Shown piece by piece: positions 15,210 to 52,400 of a stretch of 64,000 bases of DNA. The DNA comes from a virus. The notes beneath the pieces are model-generated. The model searched no databases and was not told the DNA's origin. It saw nothing but the letters and a program-made list of their open reading frames with translations. Position 1 is the first letter of the stretch. The number at the start of each line of letters is the position of its first letter. A program made the position numbers and the translations under genes. The DNA is taken from IMG/VR virus record IMGVR_UViG_3300021962_000027. One strand, given 5' to 3'.

Positions 15210-18200
15210 TTAAACTGGAATTTCTTCATCAAATCCAGGTAATTTAAATATAATATCATCATTAAACCAATAATCTGGTTCATAATCCATTTTAACCCAG
15301 AATTCTTTTTCCATTTGAGATGGTGTGTAGAATTCATATAAGGTATCTTGATCACCAATATCATTTGGTTCGTCATTAACCAAATCTAGTTCTGACCTAA
15401 GGAACATTTTTTTATCCTCTGGTTTTGTTATCAATATTTCATTTCTATGGGATAATGGGAATGCAACTAGAAGTGGTTCAACCTTTTTGTTAAAAGCGTC
15501 TAAATATTTTGGTACGTTATATTCACCAATAAAATCTGGTTGGTTTTCTATTATATCATTTGGGACTAAAGAGGCGTACATATTGCCATGTTTATCCGTA
15601 GTTGAATCACCATGTGATTTAACTTTACCATTATTTACATAATATATGGTGTCACCTAAATTAACATTTAAGTTATTTATAATAGCTAATTCCATATGAG
15701 CTTGTTTCGGTAATTCCCTACCGTTTTTATCTACACCACGATTTTTATAACCTTGTATTGATTTTTTAACCCTAGCTTTTGTGGCGATTTTAGCCAATGG
15801 TATCTCTTTGTTATGGATTTTTTCAGCGTATTCATGGTAATATTGTACAAACTCATAACCTTGGCCGCTCAATAACATCTTCATACCTTTACCTAGAAAC
15901 TCCTCAATATAAACAGGCATTGCTTTTGATTTAATACTGTTTCCAGTTAAGCTGACAGAGCCATCATCTTCTAACAAAGCGTAGTTCTTTCTTGAAAGAT
16001 TAATCGTTGCTGGCCAAATACCATCCAAACCAAGACCCATCTCCCCACGCATATAGGTGTCATTAAATTCAGCTACAACGGCTTTAACACCAGTATACTC
16101 TTTACCAGCTTCAACCTCATCATTTAAACCCTTACCGATGTAAAAGAATGATTCACCGTTCTTTGGTGCCATGAAGTTAACACCATCCGTATCAAGTACT
16201 AAAGGTGTATAACCTTTCTTGATAAAGAATTTAACCATTAGTCTAAGATACTGTCTAGCTGTACACGTAATTCGTTCACTAACATCTATTTCCGCCCATT
16301 GAAATGCCATAGGTGCACCAAGGGCACCGAACATCGAGTTAATAAAGATCTTAAGCGGTAACTGTTTACGTTTATATTTATCTGCTAATTGGTAATTACC
16401 CTCTTTTTTATATTTATCCGATAATCTCTTAGCGTTAAAACGTTCAGTATGGAAATATTTCAACATCGATTTCATCGCACCGTTAATATCAACACTAGGA
16501 AATACATCATGCGCTAATTGAATAGCTGGATAAAGTGAGTTGTAGTCCATCTTTCTTAAAGTGGTTGAATAACCAACTTTGAATAGTCTGGACAAACCAC
16601 CAGTGTAATCTCTTTTTGTATCCGATACAGGTATGGCCAAATCATTCTCGAATGAATATGCCATCATAAGCAATTTCCATAAACCAGCTGTACCCATTGT
16701 TGAAACCCTTTGGTATGTTGTTGGTACCAACTTAGCTAATAAGAATGATGACTGGTTGTAAACAGCATCAACTTCCATTGTTTCCCATAAGTCATCAATC
16801 AAGTAACGCTCAACGATATATTTACCGTCAACTTCCTCAAATGTATTGATATACTGACGAAGAGCACTTAAAAGGTTCTTAAGATAAGAGAAAGTTTTGG
16901 GCGCTTTGTAATCTAATTGAGCTAAACCAGTACCGATCCCCATTTTAGGGAATACGATAGTTTTACCCTCTCTAATCTTTTGGATTATCTTATTTACATC
17001 GGCATCGATCAGTTTTTTATTTTTATCATAATCAACGTCACTAAAATAAGATTCTGGTGTTGTATCTGGTGAATTTTTAGTTACAATACCAATTACGTTT
17101 GGTTCACCACGCATATCTTTTGCTTGTCCACCAAAACCTTCTCTTTCCACGTTGTCACCAAATACAAATATTTTATCGGGGTTTGATTGGATATGATCTC
17201 TTGTGATATAATCCATAAACTCTAAAGCTGGTTTTGTTTTACAGTATGAACCAGTTCTATCATCAAAATAGAATTTATCCTCTGAATACCAGGTGTTACC
17301 GATTTTGTCACCAACGACATAAACACGGTTCTTCTTAGCGATTTTATTGTATTTACACACATATTTTAAACCAACTGATTTCATACTCGAATCAATCGCT
17401 TGTGCACGCCTAGCTGAGTGAATAATGTCAATAATTGAATAACCAAACATATTTGTCTGTGTATATTCTTCTACCTCATTACCTAGTTTAAGGATACTTT
17501 TTTCTTTTCTCTGGATTAATTCACCTGGTTTAAGTGTTATTGCGATATCCTTAATATCAACACCAAGTTTTTGACAGCGGACAAAAAAGAAATCCCAATC
17601 AAAGTTCGCACTATTATAACCAGCTATAATCGTTGGTTTAATCTCATTAATTTTTTCAAAGAATTTTATAATACCCTGTCTTTCGGATTCATCATTATCT
17701 TCAATAGGTATAATCTCTTCAACACCTTTATTAGTGTAAATCCCGATTAAAAATATCCTATTAATCTCTGGGTCCAAACCAGTGGTCTCTAAGTCGAATA
17801 TAAACTTATGGATATCATCATATTCCTCAAACCCTTTAAACAATCTTTTACCAGTGTGTATAAAATATTGCTCAACTGGTGGTATTATCAAAAAGTGTGA
17901 ATTAATGTCATTTCTTTTATCATAAATATAAATCCCACCTTCTCTAAAGAAATCTTTCATTCTTTTATCACCCTGTGTACAGGTAACTAAGTATTTATAA
18001 CCATCAACTAGTTTTGGGTGATCACCGTGTTCGAGTACTTTAATGTCAATACCGTATCTCTGTCTTGCTGCTTTGATTTTTGAGTCACTATTACCGTAGA
18101 AATTAGTTAGTTCTTTAACCTTATTAAGGTTTTTTATCCACATAAAAGCTAATAAAGGTTCAGTTTCTATATAGTTACCCCTTTCTGGGTCTTGCTTAAC

Positions 18201-18314
18201 CTTGTGTATTAAATTAGTTTCAGCATCGTATTCAACATTAACGATGTATTTCTCATCGTCATGCCCACTAAGGAACTTTTCTATATCTTCGAGTGAAATC
18301 TTATACTCAGCCAT
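15210..18314 (-). CDS. polB: family B DNA polymerase with a macrodomain-like insertion in the 3'-5' exonuclease domain
   Basis: ExoI FDLETTG, ExoII GYNSANFD, ExoIII YLIDD; pol motifs DYNSLYP, KQLPLKIFINSMFG, DTDG. Confidence 0.95.
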   Translation of the reverse strand: MAEYKISLEDIEKFLSGHDDEKYIVNVEYDAETNLIHKVKQDPERGNYIETEPLLAFMWIKNLNKVKELTNFYGNSDSKIKAARQRYGIDIKVLEHGDHPKLVDGYKYLVTCTQGDKRMKDFFREGGIYIYDKRNDINSHFLIIPPVEQYFIHTGKRLFKGFEEYDDIHKFIFDLETTGLDPEINRIFLIGIYTNKGVEEIIPIEDNDESERQGIIKFFEKINEIKPTIIAGYNSANFDWDFFFVRCQKLGVDIKDIAITLKPGELIQRKEKSILKLGNEVEEYTQTNMFGYSIIDIIHSARRAQAIDSSMKSVGLKYVCKYNKIAKKNRVYVVGDKIGNTWYSEDKFYFDDRTGSYCKTKPALEFMDYITRDHIQSNPDKIFVFGDNVEREGFGGQAKDMRGEPNVIGIVTKNSPDTTPESYFSDVDYDKNKKLIDADVNKIIQKIREGKTIVFPKMGIGTGLAQLDYKAPKTFSYLKNLLSALRQYINTFEEVDGKYIVERYLIDDLWETMEVDAVYNQSSFLLAKLVPTTYQRVSTMGTAGLWKLLMMAYSFENDLAIPVSDTKRDYTGGLSRLFKVGYSTTLRKMDYNSLYPAIQLAHDVFPSVDINGAMKSMLKYFHTERFNAKRLSDKYKKEGNYQLADKYKRKQLPLKIFINSMFGALGAPMAFQWAEIDVSERITCTARQYLRLMVKFFIKKGYTPLVLDTDGVNFMAPKNGESFFYIGKGLNDEVEAGKEYTGVKAVVAEFNDTYMRGEMGLGLDGIWPATINLSRKNYALLEDDGSVSLTGNSIKSKAMPVYIEEFLGKGMKMLLSGQGYEFVQYYHEYAEKIHNKEIPLAKIATKARVKKSIQGYKNRGVDKNGRELPKQAHMELAIINNLNVNLGDTIYYVNNGKVKSHGDSTTDKHGNMYASLVPNDIIENQPDFIGEYNVPKYLDAFNKKVEPLLVAFPLSHRNEILITKPEDKKMFLRSELDLVNDEPNDIGDQDTLYEFYTPSQMEKEFWVKMDYEPDYWFNDDIIFKLPGFDEEIPV

Positions 18315-18474: not shown

Positions 18475-18876
18475 TTAAACAATGTCAGTTTTAATAAACG
18501 AATCCACAATATGAATATATAAATCTTCTTGTATTGGTGCGATTAACTCACCATAAACTTTAAAGGGGTCTGCTAAATCAAATAATGTTAATTTAAACTC
18601 ACCTAAAAACACACCTGGTTTATCGGTATCATCTTTAGTGAATTGGTAAACCACTATATAATGTTTGTCACCATTTTCATCACATGGGTTTTCAAGAACT
18701 ATCTTAGCTTCTTTATTGGCAACTTTATAGACACCAGTTTTTTCATCTTTCATTGCGAAAGTTGCAACACAGTTTTCAATTAATTCTTCGAAACGTCTGA
18801 AATCATTACGACCATCTCTAAAAACTTTCATTTTTAAAATAGGTAATGTTGAGTTTTGTCTTATACTGAATATCAT
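18475..18876 (-). CDS. virion structural protein, BppU-N-terminal-like Ig fold
   Basis: FSIRQNSTLPILKM...ATFAM...YQF...DTDKPGVFLGEFKL pattern, with a late promoter motif at 18892-18898. Confidence 0.5.
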   Translation of the reverse strand: MIFSIRQNSTLPILKMKVFRDGRNDFRRFEELIENCVATFAMKDEKTGVYKVANKEAKIVLENPCDENGDKHYIVVYQFTKDDTDKPGVFLGEFKLTLFDLADPFKVYGELIAPIQEDLYIHIVDSFIKTDIV

Positions 18877-20384
18877 TAGAATAATTTATTAATAAATATC
18901 TTTCTACCACCGTTTATTGTCCTTAGGTTATAAATATTAGTCATATTACTAACTATTTTTTTAACCTCTACACTATACAAAGGTACACAATACATCTGAA
19001 AATCCTTTACACCACCTAAAAATGTTCCAGCGAAGAATTTCTCAAGTACGGTGTTTATTTTCTTAGTCTCATCTAAATATAACGCATCTAAAAGATTTTG
19101 CGTACCACCACCAAATGAGATATTAAAAGGGACACCTTCTTGGTATTTACTATCAACATCTAATTCATGCGGTGTTACCTCAACAAAATCATAGTTTCTC
19201 AAAACCATTTTACCGTTTAAGTAAATTGATAACGTACCTCGTCTGTACTTACCATATAATAGTTCACAAGAATCCTTGTAGGCGAAATCCCTTTCAAACA
19301 CACTACTTACATGTAAAAACTTTTTCTCATTAACATCTATTACTGGTTTTTTTGTGTAACCCTCTTCTATTGTAAAATATTTTGTAACTATTAAAGAAAT
19401 TGTGTGATTAGAACAAGCGTCATCTGGTTGTTGGATGAATGAGTTTGTTGTGATACCACTAACTTCTTGTGTTTGACCAGTGTAACATATATCCGTTGGA
19501 TATATGGTTCTGTAACCAATTCTACCATCGTTGGTTATTCTTAAACCAAACGCATTGTAATATAAATCGGAATACTCCTGGTGGTATTGTAAAACTTGAG
19601 ACTGTGGTGTATATTTTCTACCAGTATACATTAATCCGTTATAATAGTTAAAATAACCTATATATTTTGAACTACCATTTAGGGTAAGCATACCATTATA
19701 TGTGTATATATTTTGTAATTCTTTTGGTATTATGGAATAACTATCATTTAATTTTTTAACCTCAACAACTGTTTTATCAGCATATTTGTTTTCAGATCTA
19801 GTACCCATATAAAAAATAAAACCAGTATTACCTGTAAACATCTCGTTCAGTGTAATACCTGTAGTGGAACCTGTGGTGGAACCTGTGGTGGAACCTGTGG
19901 TGGAACCTGTAGTGTTCATTGGGAAGTGTAGTAACATGTTAACACTAAAACCCTTTCTACCTCTTGTTGGAAACCACTCAACAGGTTGTTTGTGTATTTT
20001 ATAAAACCCTTGATAAAAACCACCTTTCAATTGATTATAATATTGGCCATTATCCGATTTTAAGTGTTCTATCTCATAAGTGAATTGCCCTGTATAACCA
20101 GAAACTTCGTGAAAACAAAAAGTATCACCGCTTTCAACAACATATGTTACATCTGGATCAATTTTACCATTACCATTTGGTATGAAAAAATTATCATAAC
20201 CATTAAGTCCTATATAATCCAATTCAACATTTGTTGCTTGTGTTATACCTGGTCTAGAACATAGCCCTTGAGTAACATCAATTTTAATTAAATGACACTC
20301 ACTATAATCACGATAAAAATCTCTACAATCTTTTGTGACCGTTAAATCAAAATATTCACTATTATCTAGGGCTGTATAAAACAT
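18876..20384 (-). CDS. putative virion structural protein (concanavalin/LamG-like features, (TTGS)n repeat)
   Basis: Located after the neck gene. GTLSIYLNGK, ISFGGG and F.GGV..FQMY..PL resemble LamG. Rich in [ST]GxT motifs. Confidence 0.55.
   Translation of the reverse strand: MFYTALDNSEYFDLTVTKDCRDFYRDYSECHLIKIDVTQGLCSRPGITQATNVELDYIGLNGYDNFFIPNGNGKIDPDVTYVVESGDTFCFHEVSGYTGQFTYEIEHLKSDNGQYYNQLKGGFYQGFYKIHKQPVEWFPTRGRKGFSVNMLLHFPMNTTGSTTGSTTGSTTGSTTGITLNEMFTGNTGFIFYMGTRSENKYADKTVVEVKKLNDSYSIIPKELQNIYTYNGMLTLNGSSKYIGYFNYYNGLMYTGRKYTPQSQVLQYHQEYSDLYYNAFGLRITNDGRIGYRTIYPTDICYTGQTQEVSGITTNSFIQQPDDACSNHTISLIVTKYFTIEEGYTKKPVIDVNEKKFLHVSSVFERDFAYKDSCELLYGKYRRGTLSIYLNGKMVLRNYDFVEVTPHELDVDSKYQEGVPFNISFGGGTQNLLDALYLDETKKINTVLEKFFAGTFLGGVKDFQMYCVPLYSVEVKKIVSNMTNIYNLRTINGGRKIFINKLF
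19857..19914. repeat. 12-bp tandem repeat (acctgtggtgga, about 4.8 copies) encoding (TTGS)n
   Basis: Directly visible in the sequence. Confidence 0.95.
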
Positions 20385-37663: not shown

Positions 37664-40600
37664 ATGAGTCTTAATAGTATTTCAGGACAATTTAGAAACA
37701 CAGTTCTAAATTTAAACTTACAATCTCCACCTGATATTGTAACGGGTTTAGTTAATTTAACTAACTCAGTTACTGTTAGCGCCTATTTAGATTCTTTAGG
37801 TCAGGATGCTGTTGTAAATAATTTTTCGGTGCAAAATCCAGGTGATGTTGATACAGCTGGTAACCCCGCTAGATTAGCAAATCTTAACAGAACATTAAAT
37901 ACACCTACCGACATTACAACTGGTATAACTGATTTAACGGTAAACCAACAATATGTCGCTAGTTTTATTAGCGGTAGAGGATCCGTAACAACGATTAATG
38001 ATTATACTAACGTTAACCCAGGTGATGTATTAACAGAAGCGGTTAATCCAAGACTTTTAGATTTAAATAAAAACCTAAACACACCAACAGATATCACAGC
38101 TGGCGTCCAAGCTTTAACACCAAACGCTCAATTTGCTTCCCAATATTTATCTGGTAGGGGTTCATTTAGTGTTATTAACGATTTCAATGTTATAAACCCT
38201 GGTGATGTGTTAACAGATGCTGTTTCACCAAGGCTTTTAGATTTTAGTAGAAACTTAAATACACCAACAGATATCACGGCTGGTGTAAACGATCTAACAC
38301 CTAACGCAGCTTTAGCGGCTCAATATTTATCTGGTAGGGGTTCATTTAGTGTTATTAACGACTTTGTTGTTATTAACCCTGGTGATGTAATCAATGATGC
38401 GATTGCACCAAGAATACTAAACTTTGCTCAAACATTAAATACACCAACAGATATCACAGCTGGTGTTCAAGACCTAACCCCAAATTCAACATTGGCGGCA
38501 CAATACCTTTCTGGTAGAGGATCTTTCGCCCCAGTAAATACATCACCTAATATTAACCCTGGTGATGTTATTAATGATGCGGTAGCACCAAGAACATTAA
38601 ACTTTAATAGAACATTAAATACACCAACAGATATCACAGCTGGTTTAAATGATCTTAGTGGAGCGTATGCAGCTCAATATTTAGCTGGTAGAGGTTCTTT
38701 TAGTGTTATTAATGATTATATTAACATAAACCCTGGTAATGTTCAAACAGATGCGGTAGCACCAAGAACATTAAACTTTAATAGAACATTAAACACACCT
38801 ATTGATATCACCGCTGGTTTAAATGACCTTAGTGGGACATATGCGGCTCAATATTTAGCTGGTAGAGGATTAGATACAGTTATTAATGATTTTAATAATA
38901 TAAATCCTGGTAATGTAGTTGTTCAATCATTAGCACCAAGAACATTAAATTTAAATAGAAACTTAAATACACCAATCGATATAACGGCAGGTTTAACCAA
39001 TCTTAGTGGTTCATTTGCATCTCAATATTTAGCTGGTAGAGGATTAGATACTATTATTAATAACTTCCAGGTTTTAAACCCAGGGGATGTTATGACAGAA
39101 GGTTTAGCACCAAGAACGTTAAACTTATCAATGACATTAAATACACCTATTGATATCACATCTGGTATTAGTACGTTAACAGCAAACGCATCTTTAGCAG
39201 CTCAATATTTAGCTGGTAGAGGTACTAACGCAGCTATTAATACATCACCAAACATTAACCCAGGCGATGTTGTTACAATAGCTAACCCACAAAGAATTAG
39301 TTTATTTAATAGGAATATTATTAAAGACCCATTAAATGACGCAACAGATCAATTCACAATTGCAAATCCAGGTACTGTGGCTATTGGAGCCGATACCGTT
39401 ATTAATGATTTCACAGTTTTAAATCAATCTGAATTAGCACCATTTACACAGCAATGGATTAACTCTAATATCAGAAATAGATACCAAGCTGAATTAACTG
39501 AATTAGTTGATAAAACTGGGGATATTTTCCTAAATACTGACCCTAATACACCTCAAAACCCTTATTTAACCGAGGATAAGTTAAATAATGCCGATCCAAC
39601 ACAACTAGTGATGGGTGACTTCTTAAATTTACCAACAGCATCAACACCTTTAAGCGCTTTGCTTGGTGCGGATTTAAATGTGGCTAATTTACTAACAGAA
39701 CCAGGTGTTAAAAATGATACATTATTAGCACAAATTGGTGCTTTAGAATTGAAGTTCCATTTGGAAGCTAGAATTGCTGCTAAATTGGCACAGGAAGCCC
39801 TAGGATTAACTACTTTGGATGATATGGTAACTAACCCGCTTAAGTTAGCTGAAGCGATTAAAAACCCTAGTTCTATCATTGAGAGAGGTAATGCCGATAT
39901 TACAACATTTAAAGGTGGTTTGGGTAAGGTTGCCAGTTTTATATCCGATGTTAGTGGATTGGGTGGTTTAACATCAGCATTTTTTACCGATGATTCTATC
40001 GTTTTAAGACCAACTTGTTTTTCTGAATCAGAATATGGTACTTACGATATTGAGAAAAAAATAGAAGATAGGGATATTAATAGGATTGAGGAGACAGGTA
40101 GAGGACAAAGATTCTCACTTTTCCTTAATTTAGGTATTAATAAATATACACCAGATTTTGTTGTAAAATTAGGAAGGTCTGACAAAAAAATGTTAGAAAG
40201 CTCCGCTAAAACCCAAACTGGTGTTGAAGATGTAATGTTTAAAACATACATAAGTGGCGGTATTAACGGTACGTTTTATCTATTACAAGATATAAACGGA
40301 TTACAAGTTAAAGCAAATACTGAATTAACAAGAGCTATAACAAAGGGGCCAGCAAATCAAGAAAATTATTATTCAGAACCAGGTGTTGAAACTGTTTCAA
40401 AATATAGTTCAGTACAAACATCATTTGTGTGGAGAGGTTCAACAATGGAAACTTTCTTAGACCCAGTTAATAAACAAACATTGACAGACGATTGGGATGG
40501 TAGGATCAAGGATAATGATACGTTATCAAAAACTAAGACATTCCGTGACTGTTCTATTTTAGATGTTACACAAACTTTATTAGAAGCTGGTGTTGAAAAT

Positions 40601-43600
40601 AGGGCTGCAAGAGCTATTGACCAAACAAAAACAAAATTTACTGATGGTTATAACTTCTCACCAAAAGGTAGTGGTGTGATCACACCATATAGAACTGAAA
40701 GGTTAAGTAAAGACGGTAAAGATGTTGTTGGTTATAAATATTTTGTTCCAGGTCTTGATGCCGCTGGTAACAGAGACCAAAAAAGAATGTATGATGAGGT
40801 TGAGTTATGTAGAACATGGACAAAAGCTAAACCCTTCACAAAAATTACTGATCTTATTAGATGGAAAGAATTACACAGAAAAGAAAGAAACTCAGTATTA
40901 GATAGATATGGTAACTTAAACATCCACCCCTCAGCGCTTAACGTTAATGAAGGTTATGGTAGGTTAGGTGACGGTCTTGGTGATGCTGTTGTTGAAGCTT
41001 TTGGCGAAAAAAGAGCTAGAAAATACATGTTCTCTATTGAGAATCTAGCTTGGAGAGAAGCTAGATTATTCGCAGATTTACCACCTTGTGAGAAGGGTAG
41101 TAATGGTGGTAGAATTATGTGGTTCCCACCATATAATATTAGATTTACTGATGATACAACAACAAACTGGACAGCACACCAATTCCTAGGTAGACCAGAG
41201 CCAATATACACTTACCAAAATACCGAAAGATCTGGTACTTTGAGTTGGGATATAGTTGTTGATCACCCAACAATCTTGAATTTATTAGTTTCTAAAGAGT
41301 TTGCATCATTAACAGATGGTGAAGTCGATGAATTATTAGCTGCTTTCTGGGCTGGTTGTTTAGAATACGATGTTTTTGAATTAGCTAGAATATGGGGCGT
41401 GTTTAGTGAGTCTGATATTGAATACTTCCAAAAAGTAATAGAAGATTTGGACATAAGACTCCCTAATGAAGTGATCAGGAAAAAAATTAAAAGTTCTGGT
41501 GTTAATAATGATAAAAAAGTTGAAATAGAAACTGATGATAAAGCAGCGCCTGCGATACCACAATTTAACTTATTTTTCGAAAACGATATACCATTACCAT
41601 CAAATAGATATAAAGTAAAAACATTTACTGTCGATCCGTATGATAAATATTTTCAAATATATACTGATTTAGCAAATGGTGTAAACATAGATAAAAACTC
41701 TGAATATCAAGAAGAAGCTGTTTGGGGTAATACTTACGGTTCTGGTTTAGCTGATAAAAATTGGATTCGTTATGATAAAACCATTGGTAATAAAATGCCA
41801 GAGGGTAGTAGATACTTTTTTGAAAAAGATAGAGAAAAGTTTCCAGCAAAAACATTTGGTTATGAACAACAATTCAATAGCCTAAAAGATAGTGATTATT
41901 CGGCAAAAAATTATGCATTAACAAAAGATTTTAATTTAAATATTGATATGGTTGCGCATGCATCACCATCCGCACCTGGTAATTCATTAGATAATATAAA
42001 AAAATATAATGATAAATTAGCTGCCAGACGTTTTGTTTCCGTAACAAAATGGTTTATACCAAATGTCTTAAGTAATGATACGATTAAATGTTATAATGTT
42101 AATGATGGTTTAGAAATAACACCAGAAACTATAAATAGTATTTTTAGTTCTGGTTTAGAGGAAACTAATACGATTACAATCCTAAGGGGTGATATAAATG
42201 AACCAACTAAAAGACAAAGAATAATTTTAACTGTTTCAGCTGCGGATGGTTTAACAACTGACGATGTGTTCCCAACGGACCCAACTTCTGACTACGCTAC
42301 TTTATTTGGTATGCCTAAAATATTTAATATTAATGGTGAGGATATACAATATTATGAAATAGCTTATGGTGATAAAATTTATTATATGGTTAAAACATAT
42401 GATGAATACGATAAAGTTGAAGGTCAATTTAAACCAAATGGTACGTTAATAAAAAATAGTCTAATTGGTACAGCTATTGCTATTAGAACAGATAATGGCA
42501 AAGCCACACAAATATACAGAAGACAAGCTGATGTTATTTGCGGTAACTTATCGTCAAACGCATCTTATGCTAGGAGAGTTGAGGTAAATTCTCTTTTAGC
42601 GCCTAAAGAAATACCTATTGAAAGAGTTACACCACCAGATCAAGACCCACCAGCTGAGATTGAGAAAAAATTTGTTACAACAAATGTAACTAAAAGGGAA
42701 ATAGCGCAAAGGATATTAAATAAATTATTAACGGAATGTGATTATTTTGAATATCTCTCAAAAGAGACGCCTATACTTTATGATAGTTTAAAAAGTAAAT
42801 TAAAGTATTTCACCCCAGCTTTCCACTCAATGACACCTGAAGGGTTAAACACTAGATTAACGTTCCTACAACAATGTATGAGACCTGGTGATACTATAAC
42901 TAAAAACCAGGGTCAAGGTAATTGTGATGCTAAAAACACCTCATTTGGTAAACCACCAGTTTGTGTTTTACGAATAGGTGACTTTTACCACACAAAAATT
43001 ATTATTAATAGTTTGAATATAAGTTATGATCCTTTGGTTTGGGATTTAAACCCAGAAGGTATTGGTGTACAACCAATGTTAGCTAAAATTAATTTATCGT
43101 TCAAATACATAGGTGGCCAAGGTTTAAGGAGATATGTTGACCAATTACAAAACGCTTTATCATTTAACTATTACGCAAACACCGATGTCTATGACGAAAG
43201 AACATTTGCTAATACAGATAGAAGAGAAAGGGATTTAATTAACCTTGAACAAGATTTCTTTGCTCAAAACTCATTGGATTTAATACCTATTGTGGCTCAA
43301 GCTAAATTAATAACACCTTCAACTGAATATTTACCAGTTCCTGCTGGTACAATTGGTATAATTAGTCAAAGGTTATTACCAAAATTAGCTGGTGGCACAT
43401 ATTTTAATAGTTTAGTTTCCGCAACACCATTTGACCCAGTAACAGATTTCCCAGCTGAAGCGTGTGTTGTTTACCAAGGCCAATATTATGTTAGAAAGGT
43501 AGCGAAATACCCAGAATCTGGACCAACATTACCAACAGACACAAACACTTGGACAGCTGTTGATCAATCAAACTTTGGTGAATTCGCATTCAGGGAAGAA

Positions 43601-46165
43601 TACGGTAGATATTATATCAACCAATTCGATGTTAAGTACGATGGTATTTTTGGTGAGTTATATAAAACATTCGGTGAGTATGTTTATGCATTAACAGGTG
43701 AAAATGAGACTGGTATTACGTATGTAAATGAAAAATATAGAACATTATCTGATATCCTTAGAAAGAAAAATTATGCAAAACCTATCGCAACTAGTGGTGA
43801 TACAATATCATCAATAATATCTAGTATTAGCGGGAATACAATACCTGTAGGTGGTTTTAGTGGTTTAACTTTTTATGAGGTTTTTACTAATATTGCTAGT
43901 GATAAAAGATATCTTGAATTAGGTGACATTTTTAAAAAACACCCATTCTTCTTAGGTAAAAACAACAATAAACCAGAGCAGTTCGAAGCATTAAAACTTA
44001 ATTTACACCCACAAGAATATATGTTTAAAGTTGGTGATGGACTTGGTATACCATATAAATTTGAGGCTTTAACAAATGCACCCAATAATGGTAGAAGCAC
44101 CAAGTATTTTCAAGGTAGCTTCACAAACGGTTACACCAATTATTTTGATGGCGTATCTGAAACAGGTGGTATCTTCTTTAAAGAGAGCTCAACATCACAA
44201 AAAATATATGAATCGATAATGGATAATTTCGCCTTAGAGTTTAAAACTAAGATAAGATTAAACTTATTACCGATTTGGGATGCTAAATACGACACTAACC
44301 TAAACACTTTTGACGGTTTCAACACTAAATTAGATGATGTTCATAGAATTATGTTTAGAACTTATTTAACTAACTTATTTGATTCTTATTATAGCGGACT
44401 TAAATCAAATAATGAGGAGACTACAAATACCATAAACGATAAAATCGCTAAAATGAGTGTCATACTTTCTGGTTTATCACTACCATTATATGGTTATGAC
44501 GCTAAATACACAGAAGATGGTAAGGCTCAATTATATGAAATAGTACCAAATGCTAAAAAACTCACAACAAAGGTAACAGATGCTAATATGTTTGGATATA
44601 ACCCTTACGATCAATATAAGAAATTAAATATTAGTGGTGGGGAGATAATTAATTTTTCAGATATTAACACCATATTCCAAAATACTAGTAGTAGTGGGTG
44701 GGACGGTAGTATATCACCAACATTAATGGATTATATAGGTTTGGGTAATGGTTTATACTTCTTTAAACAATTAACTAATGAGTGTATTACTGGTACAACA
44801 AATAACCCATTCCCAACTGGTGAAACAACAAATGTTATGTACGAATACGTTAGGAATATGGAATTCATACAACAAGTATTTGGTTATGAGAACATAAGTG
44901 ATTTACCAAACCAGTATAATTTTAAAAATTGTTTACCGAAAGCTGTTGCGTTCTCAAATAGCGCAATTGTGATGGCTAATCTACACAACTATTATTTTGA
45001 AACACCGTTTTCATTTAACCCTAACGAATTTGGTGTGTCACCATCAGCTAGATTATTGGAAACAACAGCTGATAACTTAACAACCAGATTATCGGATGGA
45101 AGTATTGGTAATACCATTAATAATTCATTTAGTACTAACGATTATGAAATGAAATATACGTGGGAAAAATTAAATTACGAGATGTTAGAATTCAGTAATA
45201 GGACTCTTGATTTAATGTTATCCGATGATTTAGAGACTAAATTAAATGATGTTGATTTTACGTTCACACCATCTTTATCATTTGACACGCAATTAGAAAA
45301 CCTAACAGGTACTACAATTGATGGAAGTGCAACTGGTAATACAATATCTAAATCATTATTTTATTATGGTGATAACAAAAAACCAAACCAATTTTTAACC
45401 GATGTTAATTATTATTTATTTAATGAAGATAACCCTAACATAACTGGAACTAATTTAGCTAGCATTTTAGGTAATCTAAATAATTTGTTAAAATATAATT
45501 TCACGATAAATGAACACTTTATTTCATCTTTACCAGATAATAATAAAACTGTTTTATCGGGTACAACTGTTAATGGTGGCACAACTGATTTAATACAATT
45601 AAGTGCTATGCATGAACTTATTTTTATGGAGTTTATTGTTAATTTAAACAATGATAAGAACATTCATATAGAAGCGTTAAAAACACAATTCCTTGAATCA
45701 ATATCCATTCCAGCTAATATAAAAGACAAACCTAAGAAGGTTGAGAAATATATCGCACAAAAAACAAAAGAAATTGAAGGTGTTATAAAAGACACGTTTA
45801 ATTTAATATCTAAATTTGTTATTGAATTTGATTCGGTTATAGGTGATTTATATTTTTATAACATGGATATAAAAAATCAAACAATTAAGAAAATAAATAA
45901 AAATGTTTTTGATAGCGCTGATAATGAGTACTTGATGTCTTCTGATGAGATGAAAAATAAACTAATAAAGGGTGGCCCAGAGGATTATACCTTAACTATG
46001 AGAGAAACTAGTAAATTAGATAACACCATCGTTAGAAACTTAAAACTATTTACAAAATACAAGAGTGACCCTATTATTAATATAAGCTCTGTACTAGAGG
46101 CTGAGACCGAACCAGTTGCAACAAAGACTGAATTAGCGAAGCAATGGCCAGAATTATATGATTAA
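37664..46165 (+). CDS. giant baseplate/tube-initiator protein (2833 aa) with N-terminal repeats, an OmpA-like insertion and a CBM-like module
   Basis: Tube-initiator-like halves (WFPPY...W....LGRPEPIYTY.NTERSGTLSW and PPVCVLRIGDFY...SLNISYD...QPM). Located after the TMPs and before the LysM gene. Confidence 0.7.
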   Translation: MSLNSISGQFRNTVLNLNLQSPPDIVTGLVNLTNSVTVSAYLDSLGQDAVVNNFSVQNPGDVDTAGNPARLANLNRTLNTPTDITTGITDLTVNQQYVASFISGRGSVTTINDYTNVNPGDVLTEAVNPRLLDLNKNLNTPTDITAGVQALTPNAQFASQYLSGRGSFSVINDFNVINPGDVLTDAVSPRLLDFSRNLNTPTDITAGVNDLTPNAALAAQYLSGRGSFSVINDFVVINPGDVINDAIAPRILNFAQTLNTPTDITAGVQDLTPNSTLAAQYLSGRGSFAPVNTSPNINPGDVINDAVAPRTLNFNRTLNTPTDITAGLNDLSGAYAAQYLAGRGSFSVINDYININPGNVQTDAVAPRTLNFNRTLNTPIDITAGLNDLSGTYAAQYLAGRGLDTVINDFNNINPGNVVVQSLAPRTLNLNRNLNTPIDITAGLTNLSGSFASQYLAGRGLDTIINNFQVLNPGDVMTEGLAPRTLNLSMTLNTPIDITSGISTLTANASLAAQYLAGRGTNAAINTSPNINPGDVVTIANPQRISLFNRNIIKDPLNDATDQFTIANPGTVAIGADTVINDFTVLNQSELAPFTQQWINSNIRNRYQAELTELVDKTGDIFLNTDPNTPQNPYLTEDKLNNADPTQLVMGDFLNLPTASTPLSALLGADLNVANLLTEPGVKNDTLLAQIGALELKFHLEARIAAKLAQEALGLTTLDDMVTNPLKLAEAIKNPSSIIERGNADITTFKGGLGKVASFISDVSGLGGLTSAFFTDDSIVLRPTCFSESEYGTYDIEKKIEDRDINRIEETGRGQRFSLFLNLGINKYTPDFVVKLGRSDKKMLESSAKTQTGVEDVMFKTYISGGINGTFYLLQDINGLQVKANTELTRAITKGPANQENYYSEPGVETVSKYSSVQTSFVWRGSTMETFLDPVNKQTLTDDWDGRIKDNDTLSKTKTFRDCSILDVTQTLLEAGVENRAARAIDQTKTKFTDGYNFSPKGSGVITPYRTERLSKDGKDVVGYKYFVPGLDAAGNRDQKRMYDEVELCRTWTKAKPFTKITDLIRWKELHRKERNSVLDRYGNLNIHPSALNVNEGYGRLGDGLGDAVVEAFGEKRARKYMFSIENLAWREARLFADLPPCEKGSNGGRIMWFPPYNIRFTDDTTTNWTAHQFLGRPEPIYTYQNTERSGTLSWDIVVDHPTILNLLVSKEFASLTDGEVDELLAAFWAGCLEYDVFELARIWGVFSESDIEYFQKVIEDLDIRLPNEVIRKKIKSSGVNNDKKVEIETDDKAAPAIPQFNLFFENDIPLPSNRYKVKTFTVDPYDKYFQIYTDLANGVNIDKNSEYQEEAVWGNTYGSGLADKNWIRYDKTIGNKMPEGSRYFFEKDREKFPAKTFGYEQQFNSLKDSDYSAKNYALTKDFNLNIDMVAHASPSAPGNSLDNIKKYNDKLAARRFVSVTKWFIPNVLSNDTIKCYNVNDGLEITPETINSIFSSGLEETNTITILRGDINEPTKRQRIILTVSAADGLTTDDVFPTDPTSDYATLFGMPKIFNINGEDIQYYEIAYGDKIYYMVKTYDEYDKVEGQFKPNGTLIKNSLIGTAIAIRTDNGKATQIYRRQADVICGNLSSNASYARRVEVNSLLAPKEIPIERVTPPDQDPPAEIEKKFVTTNVTKREIAQRILNKLLTECDYFEYLSKETPILYDSLKSKLKYFTPAFHSMTPEGLNTRLTFLQQCMRPGDTITKNQGQGNCDAKNTSFGKPPVCVLRIGDFYHTKIIINSLNISYDPLVWDLNPEGIGVQPMLAKINLSFKYIGGQGLRRYVDQLQNALSFNYYANTDVYDERTFANTDRRERDLINLEQDFFAQNSLDLIPIVAQAKLITPSTEYLPVPAGTIGIISQRLLPKLAGGTYFNSLVSATPFDPVTDFPAEACVVYQGQYYVRKVAKYPESGPTLPTDTNTWTAVDQSNFGEFAFREEYGRYYINQFDVKYDGIFGELYKTFGEYVYALTGENETGITYVNEKYRTLSDILRKKNYAKPIATSGDTISSIISSISGNTIPVGGFSGLTFYEVFTNIASDKRYLELGDIFKKHPFFLGKNNNKPEQFEALKLNLHPQEYMFKVGDGLGIPYKFEALTNAPNNGRSTKYFQGSFTNGYTNYFDGVSETGGIFFKESSTSQKIYESIMDNFALEFKTKIRLNLLPIWDAKYDTNLNTFDGFNTKLDDVHRIMFRTYLTNLFDSYYSGLKSNNEETTNTINDKIAKMSVILSGLSLPLYGYDAKYTEDGKAQLYEIVPNAKKLTTKVTDANMFGYNPYDQYKKLNISGGEIINFSDINTIFQNTSSSGWDGSISPTLMDYIGLGNGLYFFKQLTNECITGTTNNPFPTGETTNVMYEYVRNMEFIQQVFGYENISDLPNQYNFKNCLPKAVAFSNSAIVMANLHNYYFETPFSFNPNEFGVSPSARLLETTADNLTTRLSDGSIGNTINNSFSTNDYEMKYTWEKLNYEMLEFSNRTLDLMLSDDLETKLNDVDFTFTPSLSFDTQLENLTGTTIDGSATGNTISKSLFYYGDNKKPNQFLTDVNYYLFNEDNPNITGTNLASILGNLNNLLKYNFTINEHFISSLPDNNKTVLSGTTVNGGTTDLIQLSAMHELIFMEFIVNLNNDKNIHIEALKTQFLESISIPANIKDKPKKVEKYIAQKTKEIEGVIKDTFNLISKFVIEFDSVIGDLYFYNMDIKNQTIKKINKNVFDSADNEYLMSSDEMKNKLIKGGPEDYTLTMRETSKLDNTIVRNLKLFTKYKSDPIINISSVLEAETEPVATKTELAKQWPELYD
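37715..39300 (+). repeat. about 9 tandem 174-180 bp (58-60 aa) coding repeats
   Basis: LNTPxDITxG cores (TP codons) at 37901, 38081, 38261, 38441, 38621, 38795, 38969 and 39143, plus a degenerate first unit. Confidence 0.95.
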
Positions 46166-46181
46166 ATAAAAAAATAGAAAA

Positions 46182-46505
46182 ATGGCTTTAAATTATTTTA
46201 ATCGATACAAAAAGTTGGATAGTGACGGAAAACATGTTTCCCCGCCTTTTATTAAATTAACCGAAAAACAAACGGATAAATTTACGACTTACGTTGTTAA
46301 TAAAAGTAGGTTGGATAAATTCAGTCAGCAGTTTTATGGAGCACCTTACTATGGTTGGTTAATATTAATGGCTAACCCTGAATTAGGTTCAAGTGAATGG
46401 GAATTCCCAGATAACTCAACAATAAGAATACCATTCCCTTTACAAGATAGTTTAAGAGAATATGACACAAAACTAAAAAATAGGTTGGATTATTATGGCG
46501 GTTAA
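46182..46505 (+). CDS. LysM/tail-X-like baseplate wedge protein (gp53-like)
   Basis: RLDKFSQQFYGAPYYGWLILMANP...IRIP. Confidence 0.85.
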   Translation: MALNYFNRYKKLDSDGKHVSPPFIKLTEKQTDKFTTYVVNKSRLDKFSQQFYGAPYYGWLILMANPELGSSEWEFPDNSTIRIPFPLQDSLREYDTKLKNRLDYYGG

Positions 46506-49410
46506 TTATAATGAAAAAATATTATCCACATTCGGTAAAAGAACGGTAAAATCAACCACTGGGGAACCAGATACTATATCAAACGGTGTATTTGTTGTTG
46601 ACCCGAATAAGATTGTTACAGAGGACGAAACGATAATACCTAGATACGTTAAACAGGAAGATCTTGTTATGTACGCAAACATAACGGCTAGATTAAACCC
46701 TGACAATTCCATTATTGAAAATGGTGATCAAAGTAGTGTTGTTACCATTGGTAGGGTTGGTGTTAATTTTTTAAACCCATTCTCAACAGCACCTAAAGAC
46801 AGTTCTGGTGCGATTAATTTTGGTGATAAAAAGAATAAGGATTATTTTACAACAGAATGGTCTGACTACTTCACTTCAAATTCTGAACAAGGAACCTTTT
46901 TTGACCCAGAAACTTTCGGTATATCTAATATTGATGTAACACATAATGCTAGTTTAACACCTATCATAAAAATTGAATTTATAGATGTACAAGGTAGGAC
47001 ATTGCTTGAAAGAGGTGATGACCCATATAACCCATATAATATTTTTTATAGATTCCCATACCCTTTATTTACTTTAACAATTAAGGGTTATTTCGGTAAA
47101 GCTATTGAATACCCGTTGTCGATGACAAAAACCACAACAACGTTTGATTCATCAACTGGTAACTACGTGATTAGAGCTGAGTTCTTATCAAGAACTTTCT
47201 CAGTTTACAATAACTTCTTGATGATATACGCCTATGCCGCACCATATATGTACGAAAGATCTGATGTCCAGGGTAGTTATTTAGGTAAACGATTAGTATC
47301 AGCATTATACCAAAAACAAAATGATGAATATGCTAAATTATATGGTAAAGACACACCAGAGTATTTAAAACACGAATTTGTTAAATTTCCAACGATACTA
47401 GATTTAACCAGAGCTCAAACAGTTCTTGGTTATGAAACATTAAGTATTGAGGATAAATTAAAACAAATTAATAAAGACAAAGAAAAGGCTTTAGGTTTTT
47501 ATGGGGAGTTAGACACCGCATATGAAAGTGGGTTAAAAAGTCAATTAGAAAATTGGGAGACTAATATATTAATTAAAAACAAAAGAGATGGTAAATATTT
47601 CTTAAAACAAGAAACAATTGATTCATTAAAATCAGATGAATTACCTGATCTTAGCATGACTAATTTTCCAGCTCCATATGAAATTTTTTATGGTTATAAC
47701 GATGTATTAACTTCTATGAATGATGGTGATAATGGTGTTAGCGCTGAACTAAAAACAGCTATATTCAATGCGGTTATTGCTGATACGAGTATACCAGAAG
47801 GTTATAAAAGTGGTTTAGATATAACAAATTTAAATTCACTAATTAAGGAAAGTTTATTATTGCTATTTTATACAGATTCAAACGATGAATCTAAATTAAA
47901 TGAGATTTATTATACTGAGATATATTTTAAACAATTACATAAAACAATATCTAAAGTTCTTTCAGAATATTATGATAAAGAAGAAACTACAATCGTAGAT
48001 AATTTAGGTTTACAGTTAAAAGAAAATTTAGGTTACGTACCAAACATGTCAAACGTTTTACGTATATTAATGAATAATATGCAAGTATTTTTAACAATGT
48101 TAAATCTAGTTGGGTTAAATGCGTCAAAACAGTTAATGGATGATGCTGGTAGAAGAACTAACCAGGAAAAATTCGGTGAGTATGACATACCAACAAACTC
48201 ACCTGGTGACAAAAGATTCTACCCATTCCCTAATTATTTTAAGAAAAAATTTGATACAAATACTGAAGATTTTATTTGGGAAAAGGTTTATCCCTGGACA
48301 AGAAAAACAGTTAATTGGTTTGAGGTTCAGTTTGTTGAGGAGATATATCGAGCGTTAGAACGTTTAAAAAAACTACCTAAAGATGGTATTGATAGCCAAA
48401 CCGAAGCTGACATACTTTTTCAAATCGAAGAAGCTAAAAAGGTTAAAGGTAATGTTATTAGCGATAAGAAAATAGCGTTATTGACAACATTATTGGTGGT
48501 TAATAATTTAGATTTTTATAATGATCAACAATCACCAAGAGAAACTGGTTTAGAGTTTATAGAAAAAATAATGTTATTTTCAACATTAGGTTATATTAAC
48601 ACAGCTGGCGATGTCACCAAGATAAATGATATCACTAAACTTTTTGTTGACCACGAATTTGATTTAATTGAAAGAAGATACGCTAATAAAGATGCTAATG
48701 ACATACATGATTTTTATAGTAATCTAGGTGTTTTTATTGGTCATAATGTTTATGAAGGTACCGAAACACCAACAAATTATGATAGGATATGTAATGAATT
48801 TGTTAATGGTACAGTTGTAACAACAGGTGGTAATTACACTAATGAAACAAATGGTGTTGCCATCGTTAATAATATTAATAATATTATCCCAGAGCTTAAG
48901 GCTTTGTTATCAACAAATTACACTATTAGTGAATTAAGGGATTTATATGTTAAAGTTGATAATATTATTAACCAAGCTACTGATATAACGGAATTTAAAA
49001 AATTATATCAATATAACCCATTAAAATATAAAAACAGGAAAAACTCTAATCAAGGTCAAACAACAAGATCATTATTTTTTAACGGATTGGATTCTCATGA
49101 TATGTACGATGGTTTTAGTGATTATTTAAATGATTACTCAACTAAATTACAAGCTTATAGAAAAACATCTTTAGTTTCCGCAAATAATGGTTATTTTTAT
49201 TCTTTAAACACTGAAAATGTGGACACGTTAAATTTTATCGTTAACGGTAGGGTTGAAGCCAATGACAGTAACTCCACACCTTTAACATTTGCTTTAAAAA
49301 CAGATGAATTACTTAAAGATGGTAAATTGGGGATGGAATTTGGGGGTTTAAACTTAGATAATACTAAAAAAATAACAAGTGGTACTAAGTATAGTAAAGT
49401 AAGAATATAA
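46495..49410 (+). CDS. baseplate hub protein, N-terminal part (gp27/late-control-D-like)
   Basis: FGISNI...IEFIDVQGR...YPLFTLTIKGYFGK...FDSSTGNY.I.AEF; follows the LysM gene. Confidence 0.55.
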   Translation: MAVNYNEKILSTFGKRTVKSTTGEPDTISNGVFVVDPNKIVTEDETIIPRYVKQEDLVMYANITARLNPDNSIIENGDQSSVVTIGRVGVNFLNPFSTAPKDSSGAINFGDKKNKDYFTTEWSDYFTSNSEQGTFFDPETFGISNIDVTHNASLTPIIKIEFIDVQGRTLLERGDDPYNPYNIFYRFPYPLFTLTIKGYFGKAIEYPLSMTKTTTTFDSSTGNYVIRAEFLSRTFSVYNNFLMIYAYAAPYMYERSDVQGSYLGKRLVSALYQKQNDEYAKLYGKDTPEYLKHEFVKFPTILDLTRAQTVLGYETLSIEDKLKQINKDKEKALGFYGELDTAYESGLKSQLENWETNILIKNKRDGKYFLKQETIDSLKSDELPDLSMTNFPAPYEIFYGYNDVLTSMNDGDNGVSAELKTAIFNAVIADTSIPEGYKSGLDITNLNSLIKESLLLLFYTDSNDESKLNEIYYTEIYFKQLHKTISKVLSEYYDKEETTIVDNLGLQLKENLGYVPNMSNVLRILMNNMQVFLTMLNLVGLNASKQLMDDAGRRTNQEKFGEYDIPTNSPGDKRFYPFPNYFKKKFDTNTEDFIWEKVYPWTRKTVNWFEVQFVEEIYRALERLKKLPKDGIDSQTEADILFQIEEAKKVKGNVISDKKIALLTTLLVVNNLDFYNDQQSPRETGLEFIEKIMLFSTLGYINTAGDVTKINDITKLFVDHEFDLIERRYANKDANDIHDFYSNLGVFIGHNVYEGTETPTNYDRICNEFVNGTVVTTGGNYTNETNGVAIVNNINNIIPELKALLSTNYTISELRDLYVKVDNIINQATDITEFKKLYQYNPLKYKNRKNSNQGQTTRSLFFNGLDSHDMYDGFSDYLNDYSTKLQAYRKTSLVSANNGYFYSLNTENVDTLNFIVNGRVEANDSNSTPLTFALKTDELLKDGKLGMEFGGLNLDNTKKITSGTKYSKVRI

Positions 49411-49411
49411 A

Positions 49412-52400
49412 ATGGGATTAGCTTTAGCAAATTTTTTAAAAGAAAGATATCTTAATAGTACCGACTCGGACTTAGGTGCCGTGATGTCAACTGCATATGA
49501 CGAATACAATAATAACATATTGTTGTCAACCGCAGAAAAATATCACGATGCGTTTAAAACCGAAACTTTATTTAAAAATGTACATGATCTACCTGTTAGA
49601 TACGGTACCCAATCAACCGCATACCAATCACCATCAACACCCGTTAACCACGCAATATTTGCGCAAAATATAGTAAATGAATCTAAAACTGGTAAATTAT
49701 TTAAAACAGCACAGCTGTTTATTTCTAGTTTAGCAACAGAGTCTAATAATGGGGTGGTATCACCAGCACAATTAGGTAAGATATTTAAAAGAACCCAAGG
49801 ATTAATTGAGGTACCCACCCACTTGGTGTTATACATTGGTGGATTATATGATTTTTATTATTATGGAACTCCAGATAATAATATTGATTTAAAAACAATT
49901 AACGGTGTTTCAAATAAAGATGGTAGTGATTTATTATCCAACCCTTTATTATTGAACAAACATTATGGTTCATACGCTTTCGATAACAATAACGCTGGTT
50001 TAAAAGCCGCAACGTTACCATTCGTAAAACCTCTAACCCCAAGATTCATTGATGATTTAATGTCATTTGATTATGAATCATATAGAGACCAGAAATTACC
50101 TAAAAATTATCGTGATACATATTATGATTATGAATTTAAACAGGATATCTCTTTAAGTAATAACATATCATCACATATACCATTTTCTGGTTACGGTGTT
50201 TTAAATAATTATTTAAACTCAATGTCATACCTATACTTCAATGAAGGTCTTGATGGTCAAACAAATGAAAATAGTAGTTTAAATGACGATGGTTTACCTT
50301 ACCATATAATTGGTAATTTTAGGGGTAAATTAAAAACGTTTAAAACATATAATGATCAGAATATAAATTTCCTAGGATCATATAATAGTTACGGACCTAA
50401 AGTTAAATTTAATATATCAACAGCAGACTCTGATTTAAACACTATAACTAGCGCCATAACATTTGACAATGATTTTTTATACACGGATAAAAATAATAAA
50501 GAAAAAATAGAATTCTTTTTACTTCTATCCAAGATAAAATGTAATTTTCTTGGTGGTTATATGGACACGGTTGATGTTTATAACATAGTTAGAAAACTGT
50601 GTGCTATTAATAATTTAAAAGCTAAACAGGATGATATTGAAATACCTGATTTTATCACTTTATTAATACACAGTTTAATACCACCAGATGGTAATGAACC
50701 AGACACAGATTCCAATAGAGTTAATAGGAACCTAACAATCTTAGATAAATATAATGTTGATTCAAGATCGTTCATCGGTTATATAGATATTAAAACTAAG
50801 GAGTATAATGAGTTATACACAATCATATTAATGATTAACCAGTTAACTGGTAACGACCTATATGATTACGCATCAAGACTATTGGTATCAATGTGGTCAA
50901 GAGAGTTTAACCAAAAAGAGAATAATAAACTTAAAGCATTAGACGGAAGAGGTTCATTTGTTGTTTACCCAAGTTGTGGTGGTGATATTAATGTTAATAA
51001 TTTATTTACACAAAACGATTTTGATTACGGTTTGGGTAATAATAAAGCGTCTATAAACCCTAAGTATAAGTACCAAAAAACTAATGTTGTACATACGGTA
51101 TTTGAAACACAAGGTGATGCCTATTTATCAAATTTAGTACATAATGATCCAGAATTTTTGGTAATCGATTCTAAGGTATCAAATGATATAACAAATTACT
51201 GGAACAGGACCTATTTATATTCGCAGATAAACCCTGGTTTAGCTGAATTTGTTTCCCTTAATAACTCACAAAACTATTCTGATAGAATAATACCTAAAAA
51301 TGTTACGGCAAATGATACCGCTTTAATGGGTATGTATTTACCCGTATATTTTAGACCAGAAAACGCCCCATCAAATGGCACATTCATCAATTATTTTGAT
51401 AGGTATGATGATGTTTATATCATTGCAAATACAACGGATCCAGAGGGTGTTAAGAGACTTAAATTCGATAACAAATCTTTAATATATAATACCAGTAGAT
51501 TATTTTGGTTTGATTCGCCAAACACTAGTGGCGTAATATACCCAGAGACTATTAAATTCGCCCCAAAAAATGCAACACAAAAACCAGATTTAATATCCGT
51601 TGATTATTACGAGTATAAACATTTCCATTTAAAAAACGGTAGTGTTTATGATTATAAAAACGGTGAGTTGTTTTATGACATGTCTAATACCGATGAAGAG
51701 GTTGTTAGATCTTATAACGATTTTAAAGCTGGGTCCACATTATATTCGACTTTTGAAAACTTAGTTAGTAATGCTGACAGTATCACTAATTATTATTCGG
51801 ATAACAAACAAATACAAGATGCGGATTCTGCAAAAATTTTATTAGATATTTTCGACATTGATAAATTAGAAGACTTCAGAACACTATTCAAAAAATTTGC
51901 TGATGGTACCCAAGAAAATTATTTTAATAAAACATTTAATACGTTTGATTTTAAATCATTGTTAAAACACACAACGATGTTTGGGTATAGCAACTTACCA
52001 AATAGTGTTGAATTATACGGTAGATCTTTCGGTAAAGATGAGTTATTGGCGCTGATTTGTGGTTACTCTGGTAATTTCATAGAATTCGCCTCTATAACTG
52101 GTTTAGCTAAGGTTATTAACACCGCATTAACTTTAGGTCAAGAAGATAAGGCTAGGTTCGTAATAGATGAATTTTTAAACGCAAAAATAACCGTAAATAA
52201 TTACTCAACAGGTGGACCATTAACAATAGAGAGTTCCGATTTAAATAACCCAAATGGTTTAAGATTAAATTCGTTTATTTTTAACCCAATTATAGCATAT
52301 TCAACAAACACAAGAACTTATGAAAATATCGTGGCATCGCTTGGTGATGTTTTGTTATTCAGAACAATTTTATTCGGTGATCAAAATATTTCAGGGTATA

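Follow-up and report, generated by a model that had tools for sequence, protein, structure and literature searches.

A DUF7831 module with a predicted macro-like fold inside the proofreading domain of a jumbo-phage DNA polymerase

Known erasers of DarT marks and an insertion in a viral polymerase

The known means by which phages counter DarTG are free proteins (the inhibitors AdfA/B, the NADAR eraser AdfN, and the macrodomain eraser AdfM) or point mutations of the DNA polymerase. The stand-alone AdfM macrodomains, PhiKZ gp104 and T4 Tk.4, defeat DarTG2 by de-ADP-ribosylating DNA, and DNA polymerase mutations let one phage escape DarTG2 (PMC13309987, PMC13716836). The substrate of DarT is single-stranded DNA (ssDNA), and the active-site residues are N22 and K80 in DarG2 and N23 and K78 in AdfM (PMC13309987). 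Here we describe a family-B DNA polymerase (PolB) encoded in a 64,000-nucleotide stretch of viral DNA (IMG/VR record IMGVR_UViG_3300021962_000027; "the window" denotes this whole stretch), whose proofreading exonuclease domain harbors an inserted DUF7831 domain. We favor, with a probability of about 45%, the reading that this insert is a macro-type module that, acting in cis with the polymerase, processes ADP-ribose adducts carried by DNA.

AdfM is a free protein, while the insert is embedded in a polymerase and its activity is a prediction; compared with AdfM and the DarG2 macrodomain, the insert shows no significant sequence similarity and lacks ~30 residues and the last strand. Human TARG1 (C6orf130/OARD1), a eukaryotic protein-directed ADP-ribose hydrolase, is 9 to 10% identical to the insert. 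Also known to erase DarT marks from DNA are AdfN and the NADAR domain of DarG1 (PMC13309987, PMC13716836), whose fold is unrelated to that of the insert and which are specific for guanine-linked ADP-ribose. Of the stand-alone DUF7831/phrog_2072 proteins the insert is a true member with all signature residues, sharing 45 to 57% identity with those of Caulobacter, Rhizobium, Sinorhizobium, Bradyrhizobium, and Phaeobacter phages and of giant viruses, and it differs from them as an internal insertion in an essential enzyme. By analogy, archaeal PolB, whose uracil "read-ahead" pocket checks template bases before they reach the active site, may offer a precedent for template inspection by a replicative PolB, but this pocket lies in the N-terminal domain, senses only, and is not an inserted enzyme domain, unlike the DUF7831 insert.

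In the mechanism we propose, a stand-alone phage DUF7831 gene would have been captured into the 3'-5' exonuclease domain of a jumbo-phage PolB. DUF7831 would most likely be a reduced version of the macro-type fold seen in the DarG/TARG1/AdfM class, with four predicted strands, two glycine-rich phosphate loops, an Asn, invariant in the family, that follows strand 2, and a Thr-Lys pair that follows strand 3. Since all signature residues are intact in the phage of the window, the module is probably active. It would bind an ADP-ribose-type adduct on ssDNA beside the polymerase and would remove it, as DarG2 and AdfM strip ADP-ribose from thymidine, or would at least sense it, with the outcome that a DarT-like host defense mark would not stall replication. 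We infer this anti-DarT eraser role from the fold, the motif positions, the fusion partners, and the published AdfM precedent. If it is correct, a replicative polymerase that carries the eraser within itself would represent a new counter-defense architecture, and one of the rare examples in which such a polymerase is linked to direct reversal of damage. A function would also be gained for a DUF whose ~2,150 clusters are spread over phages, giant viruses, polyvalent proteins, and acidobacterial elements. Given its small size and confidently predicted fold, the domain should lend itself readily to binding and hydrolysis assays.

A full-length DUF7831 domain between ExoII and ExoIII

The 1034-amino-acid (aa) protein is a family-B DNA polymerase with intact exonuclease and polymerase motifs, all of them invariant across 45 PolB relatives. 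It matches Pfam DNA_pol_B_exo1, DNA_pol_B, and RNase_H_2, as well as phrog_262 DNA polymerase (E 8e-45). The best PDB matches of the whole-PolB AlphaFold2 (AF2) model, which has a predicted local distance difference test score (pLDDT) of 89.3, are the archaeal family-B polymerases 9N/KOD/Tgo (E ~1e-29), and the matches include 2vwj and 2vwk, entries on uracil recognition. The gene has the following features.

15210..18314, minus strand: family-B replicative DNA polymerase with proofreading exonuclease, 1034 aa (open reading frame [ORF], Pfam, PHROGs, AF2 model)
17784..17798, minus strand: ExoI FDLET (D174, E176), aa 173-177 (motif in the PolB sequence, as are the other Exo and polymerase motifs)
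17598..17618, minus strand: ExoII YNSANFD (D239), aa 233-239
16848..17228, minus strand: inserted DUF7831 domain with a macro-like predicted fold, aa 363-489 (Pfam PF25176 and model)
16791..16805, minus strand: ExoIII YLIDD (Y504, D508), aa 504-508
16182..16547, minus strand: polymerase motifs A DYNSLYP, B KIFINSMFG, and C DTDG

The original prediction, made from the sequence alone, had placed ~125 extra residues between ExoII and ExoIII at 16850-17225; they are indeed there, at aa 363-489 (16848-17228), and the residues quoted for them, FVFGDN...GFGGQA...IGIVTK...FPKMGIGTG...APKTF, are present at aa 383-475. ExoII and ExoIII are separated by 263 aa in the window PolB, compared with 145 to 146 aa in insert-less relatives, in which the flanks are joined directly. 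The insert is a full-length DUF7831 member: Pfam PF25176 matches it with E 2.3e-43 and 147.2 bits against a cut-off of 27, over profile positions 2-117 of 118, and phrog_2072 matches it as well (E 3e-15). The window PolB keeps 22 of the 22 residues of the family signature, which includes F-G-D-N, G-x-G-G-Q-A, R-G-E-x-N, T-K, and P-x-x-G-x-G-x-G.

An intein, recognizable by Hint/LAGLIDADG domains, by Cys, Ser, or Thr at +1, and by a terminal His-Asn, was rejected, in agreement with the lack of intein ends noted earlier. The Pfam scan of PolB gave no intein, Hint, or LAGLIDADG match, and the junctions, which fall between ...TKP and ALEF... and between ...RQYI and NTFEE..., carry no splice residues. 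No direct repeats of note flank the insert, and no second DUF7831 or AdfM-like gene was found in the 64-kb window. A real intein (PF14528 LAGLIDADG_3, PF14890 Intein_splicing) is present elsewhere in the PolB of the metagenomic relative P0053 (1392 aa), which also has a decayed insert.

Predicted fold of the insert

A model of the insert built from an alignment with 50 stand-alone homologues has a pLDDT of 96.7 and a predicted template modeling score (pTM) of 0.89 and contains 4 strands and 5 helices. Among 48,161 chains compared structurally with this model, macrodomains account for at least 16 of the top 21. The top matches are DarG and TARG1, erasers of ADP-ribose on DNA or protein, and macroH2A and GDAP2 are also among the structural matches. 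The model partly supports a macro-like fold, closest to DarG and TARG1. Membership in another Rossmann-like superfamily (SLOG/LOG-type or P-loop-derived), which would make the insert an N-glycosidase or nucleotide-binding module, appears very improbable: macrodomains dominate the ranking, SLOG, LOG, DprA, and TIR structures are missing from the 50 best of the 48,161 chains (absence from this list does not exclude a superfamily), and the Pfam SLOG families have no match in 51 DUF7831 members.

Searches of PDB by sequence, with both the single insert sequence and the family profile, gave chance matches only, one of them to triosephosphate isomerase through an AIGTG phosphate loop (E 0.1).

Residue-level comparison with AdfM and DarG2

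The putative active-site elements of the insert, located by a family alignment (A2) and by hhalign, are listed here with their AdfM counterparts.

17151..17159, minus strand: G386-D387-N388, end of strand 2; N388 (N29 in the numbering of the insert piece) is family-invariant, aligns with the catalytic Asn of DarG2/AdfM, and is paired by hhalign with AdfM N23 (A2 and hhalign)
17121..17138, minus strand: glycine-rich loop 1 GFGGQA, aa 393-398; aligns with AdfM G-x-G-x-A, G396 and A398 being paired by hhalign with AdfM G31 and A33 (A2 and hhalign)
17076..17081, minus strand: T412-K413, end of strand 3; aligns with AdfM T77-K78, which includes the catalytic Lys (A2 and hhalign)
16926..16949, minus strand: glycine-rich loop 2 PKMGIGTG, aa 456-463; P456-x-x-G459-x-G461-x-G463 is paired by hhalign with AdfM P121-x-x-G124-x-G-x-G128 (A2 and hhalign)

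In alignment A2, G34, G36, G37, Q38, and A39 of loop 1 (insert piece numbering, as in the rest of this sentence) are invariant or nearly so, T53 and K54, which correspond to T412-K413, are nearly invariant, and P97, G100, G102, and G104 of loop 2 are conserved. D387, R402, E404, N406, and D426 are likewise invariant in DUF7831 and have no counterpart in the AdfM alignment. The AdfM side of the comparison started from PhiKZ gp104, taken from its GenBank record, for which 132 homologues were collected and 68 aligned as an AdfM-family set (A4); invariant positions in these 68 sequences are V-N, G-x-G-x-A, P-T-K, and P-x-x-G-x-x-x-G-x-L. The hhalign alignment of the insert family with this set is colinear over 115 columns, with a probability of 1.4 to 2.5%, which is not significant. 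Against PhiKZ AdfM alone, the register is right (N29 to N23) at a probability of 0.6%. The single sequence of E. coli YmdB gave no meaningful alignment in hhalign, and NCBIfam searched by HMMER gave no Macro link. The motif correspondence between the insert and AdfM, which is in line with the independent structural ranking, is suggestive; a sequence relationship is not demonstrated, and the insert fails the sequence test for membership in the macrodomain family.

Several observations weigh against a macro-type eraser. In the hhalign control the real pair scores 19.2 and the reversed profile 18.7; when columns were shuffled, 4 of 150 runs reached the real score, and when blocks were shuffled, 18 of 150 did. 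HMMER found no match to PF01661 (Macro) in 51 DUF7831 members at E <= 10, and the PADLOC DarG profiles did not match the insert family. The ~30 residues deleted relative to AdfM correspond to a hairpin and the remainder of helix 1, and the last strand is missing in addition. Motif residues are repeatedly lost within the polymerase clade (see below), so the activity would seem dispensable. We know of no DarT-bearing host. Finally, Foldseek of the insert model against PDB returned nothing at E <= 0.001, its top rows, none of them significant, being PTP/DUSP phosphatases, CbiL, and Get3. The macro-like reading as first put forward is partly supported: the variable insertion and the predicted macro-like fold are upheld, and the sequence-profile comparison is not significant.

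Variation of the insert among polymerases

That the segment is a variable insertion rather than a universal part of this polymerase clade, as the original prediction had anticipated, is well borne out. We found the insert at the ExoII-ExoIII site in 82 of 121 PolB representatives, and insert-less clades exist. Approximately 62 of the 82 keep at least 20 of the 22 signature residues, with backbones only 45 to 50% identical. Ten PolBs (P0008 to P0017) keep 13 to 16 signature residues, and most of these retain the Asn and the Thr-Lys pair; here, G-D-N is changed to D-E-N or S-E-N, G-G-Q-A to G-Q-Q-S or G-E-Q-S, and G-I-G-T-G to V-P-G-N-G or G-I-G-T-D. Nine insert-bearing PolBs have lost the signature motifs altogether. 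On a PolB tree computed with the insert masked and midpoint-rooted, in which the polarity of gain and loss is not secure, the intact-insert forms are paraphyletic, with two insert-less clades nested among them. Decay of the insert occurred at least five times on this tree, and sister polymerases do not have the insert. Near-identical polymerases whose inserts range from intact through half-decayed and fully decayed to absent constitute a natural experiment.

Divergence in the insert is also sharply local and far exceeds that of its flanks. P0004 and P0001 are 91% identical outside the insert and 55% inside, the identity falling to 40 to 52% in aa 401-480 (window 16900-17110) and returning to 80 to 100% in the flanks. 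The P0004 insert is nearer to that of P0008/P0009 than to the inserts of the nearest relatives of its backbone, as would be expected from recombination or rapid diversification. Among backbones 76 to 96% identical, three insert "alleles" occur, whose tree disagrees with that of the backbones; recombination could account for this, as could diversifying selection. At deep divergence, with backbones ~45% identical, the inserts are ~50% identical, mostly at signature positions. We read the insert as having an accessory, conflict-type function that would be strongly constrained where it is used, dispensable elsewhere, and intact in the phage of the window.

The insert might also be a passenger that the polymerase tolerates, or a structural spacer, lacking any biochemical role at present, and its likeness to macrodomains would then reflect only a widespread three-layer alpha/beta architecture equipped with phosphate loops. 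This reading would fit several of these data: the insert decayed at least five times with the polymerase left intact, it is absent from sister clades, its divergence lies far above that of the flanks (55% versus 91% for P0001 and P0004), and the sequence-profile evidence is not significant. We nevertheless consider a passenger rather improbable, because the retention of 22 of 22 residues here, and similar retention in most lineages, with non-motif positions saturated, argues for purifying selection on the pocket, and because a generic fold would hardly yield macrodomains for at least 16 of the 21 top-ranked chains.

Five insert-bearing IMG/VR contigs each contain one DUF7831 copy, located in PolB, and no stand-alone DUF7831 was found in five insert-less relatives (contigs 60 to 75% complete). 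Neither set of five contigs has a canonical Macro gene, so that these contigs speak neither for functional replacement nor against it. Other lineage-specific PolB insertions were observed as well: ~60 to 70 aa in the N-terminal domain of P0086 and P0097 and a long coiled-coil-like segment near the C-terminus of P0090. P0100 is also listed with such insertions (alignment A1, columns 160-230 and 1100-1215).

The wider DUF7831 family

An exhaustive HMMER search for DUF7831 yielded 2,153 cluster representatives, with E <= 1e-10 for 1,511; the papers searched contain no mention of the family. Of the best 149 representatives, 72 are stand-alone (<=250 aa) and 48 exceed 1,000 aa, the longest having 6,725 aa. 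Stand-alone hypothetical proteins of cultured Caulobacter, Rhizobium, Sinorhizobium, Bradyrhizobium, Brevundimonas, Phaeobacter, and Rhodobacter phages match the insert at 39 to 49% identity, and the neighbors of stand-alone phage DUF7831 genes are small unannotated genes. Matches of the insert in BFVD include the giant viruses Tupanvirus, Hyperionvirus, and Yasminevirus and large crAss-like phage proteins. Among the latter, A0A7M1RTM7, A0A7M1RV35, and A0A7M1RU68 (cr130_1, cr131_1, and cr272_1; 1278 to 1451 aa) have a DUF7831-like domain with 19 to 23% identity and Foldseek E values of 3e-06 to 1e-05.

Pfam scans of 28 multidomain DUF7831 proteins revealed these fusion partners.

DUF488-N3a: 7 proteins
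cpYpsA/YpsA (SLOG): 5 proteins
RecD/PIF1-type superfamily 1 (SF1) helicase: 3 proteins
NADAR: 2 large proteins
DUF4326: 1 protein
AlkB-like 2-oxoglutarate (2OG)-Fe(II) oxygenase: 1 protein
PNK-like kinase with UvrB-interaction and MuF domains: 1 protein
sigma-70 regions: 1 protein

In cellular genomes we found 71 DUF7831 loci, 35 to 36 of which lie directly after a gene for single-stranded DNA-binding protein (SSB), all in Acidobacteriota (Pyrinomonadaceae, Chloracidobacterium, Blastocatellia). This acidobacterial cassette consists of SSB (PF00436), DUF7831, and then an uncharacterized ~565-aa protein, and a genome may contain several copies.

L088:3460-6809, L100:3499-6258, and ~34 further loci among L087-L155: SSB-DUF7831-565-aa cassette

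Its occurrence in several copies suggests that the SSB-DUF7831 cassette is mobile or prophage-like. For the ~565-aa protein, Pfam and PDB gave no match, and a weak Atlas lead points to SPP1-type portal proteins.

DUF488-N3a, cpYpsA/YpsA, and DUF4326 are predicted to act on soluble ADP-ribose derivatives and terminal phosphates, and sensor roles have been proposed for ligand-binding domains fused to nucleic-acid enzymes (PMC9503650). The partner set of DUF7831 matches the ADP-ribose-processing network described in that study, which would put DUF7831 in the place of Macro. The polymerase, the helicases, SSB, and AlkB all act on ssDNA, and the partners as a whole, sigma-70 regions aside, act or are predicted to act on ssDNA or on ADP-ribose. 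It is tempting to go further and assume that the window encodes a replicative polymerase with a built-in minimal DarG-like de-ADP-ribosylase, which would erase DarT marks on template or primer at the fork, and that the wider DUF7831 family (helicase-fused, SSB-adjacent) comprises widespread ssDNA-tracking anti-DarT erasers of phages, giant viruses, and mobile elements; we hold this fuller version only tentatively, with more doubt than belief.

The same fold and pocket could instead serve another ligand or chemistry (ADP-ribose-1''-phosphate, O-acetyl-ADP-ribose, a cyclic ADP-ribose signal, or another DNA or nucleotide modification) and not DarT-type ADP-ribosyl-DNA. This is where the commonest partners (DUF488-N3a in seven proteins and cpYpsA/YpsA in five) and DUF4326, predicted for soluble ADP-ribose derivatives (PMC9503650), would lead, as would the five invariant residues D387, R402, E404, N406, and D426 without an AdfM counterpart. 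On the other hand, the insertion into a polymerase, the SF1 helicase and AlkB-like fusions, and the SSB adjacency point to a DNA-bound substrate, and the top structural matches, DarG and TARG1, are erasers; we regard a different ligand as unlikely.

Alternatively, the module might be a non-catalytic reader that binds an ADP-ribose-type mark or nucleotide signal and alters the polymerase/exonuclease switch, stalling, or bypass. Some macrodomains only read, macroH2A and GDAP2 are among the structural matches, fused ligand-binding domains have been proposed as sensors (PMC9503650), and the location inside the exonuclease domain would suit allosteric coupling. A reader is quite improbable in our view, given that the invariant Asn and Thr-Lys align with the catalytic residues of DarG2 and AdfM and that the 72 stand-alone representatives (125 to 160 aa) would be of little use as lone readers.

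Other genomic contexts

In Hymenobacter (L096, L107, L121), chromosomal order is conserved around a stand-alone DUF7831 gene: isoleucyl-tRNA synthetase-like, signal peptidase II, small unknown, DUF7831, ABC-F type ATPase, and RNase R. This DUF7831 gene is not obviously on a mobile element. In the window, the neighbors of the polymerase include a protein of 502 aa that contains a TGSTTGSTTGS repeat, as well as ORFs of very large size, 2833 and 2334 aa (18876-20384, minus strand, and 37664-56416, plus strand). CheckV completeness of related contigs points to genomes of ~300 kb.
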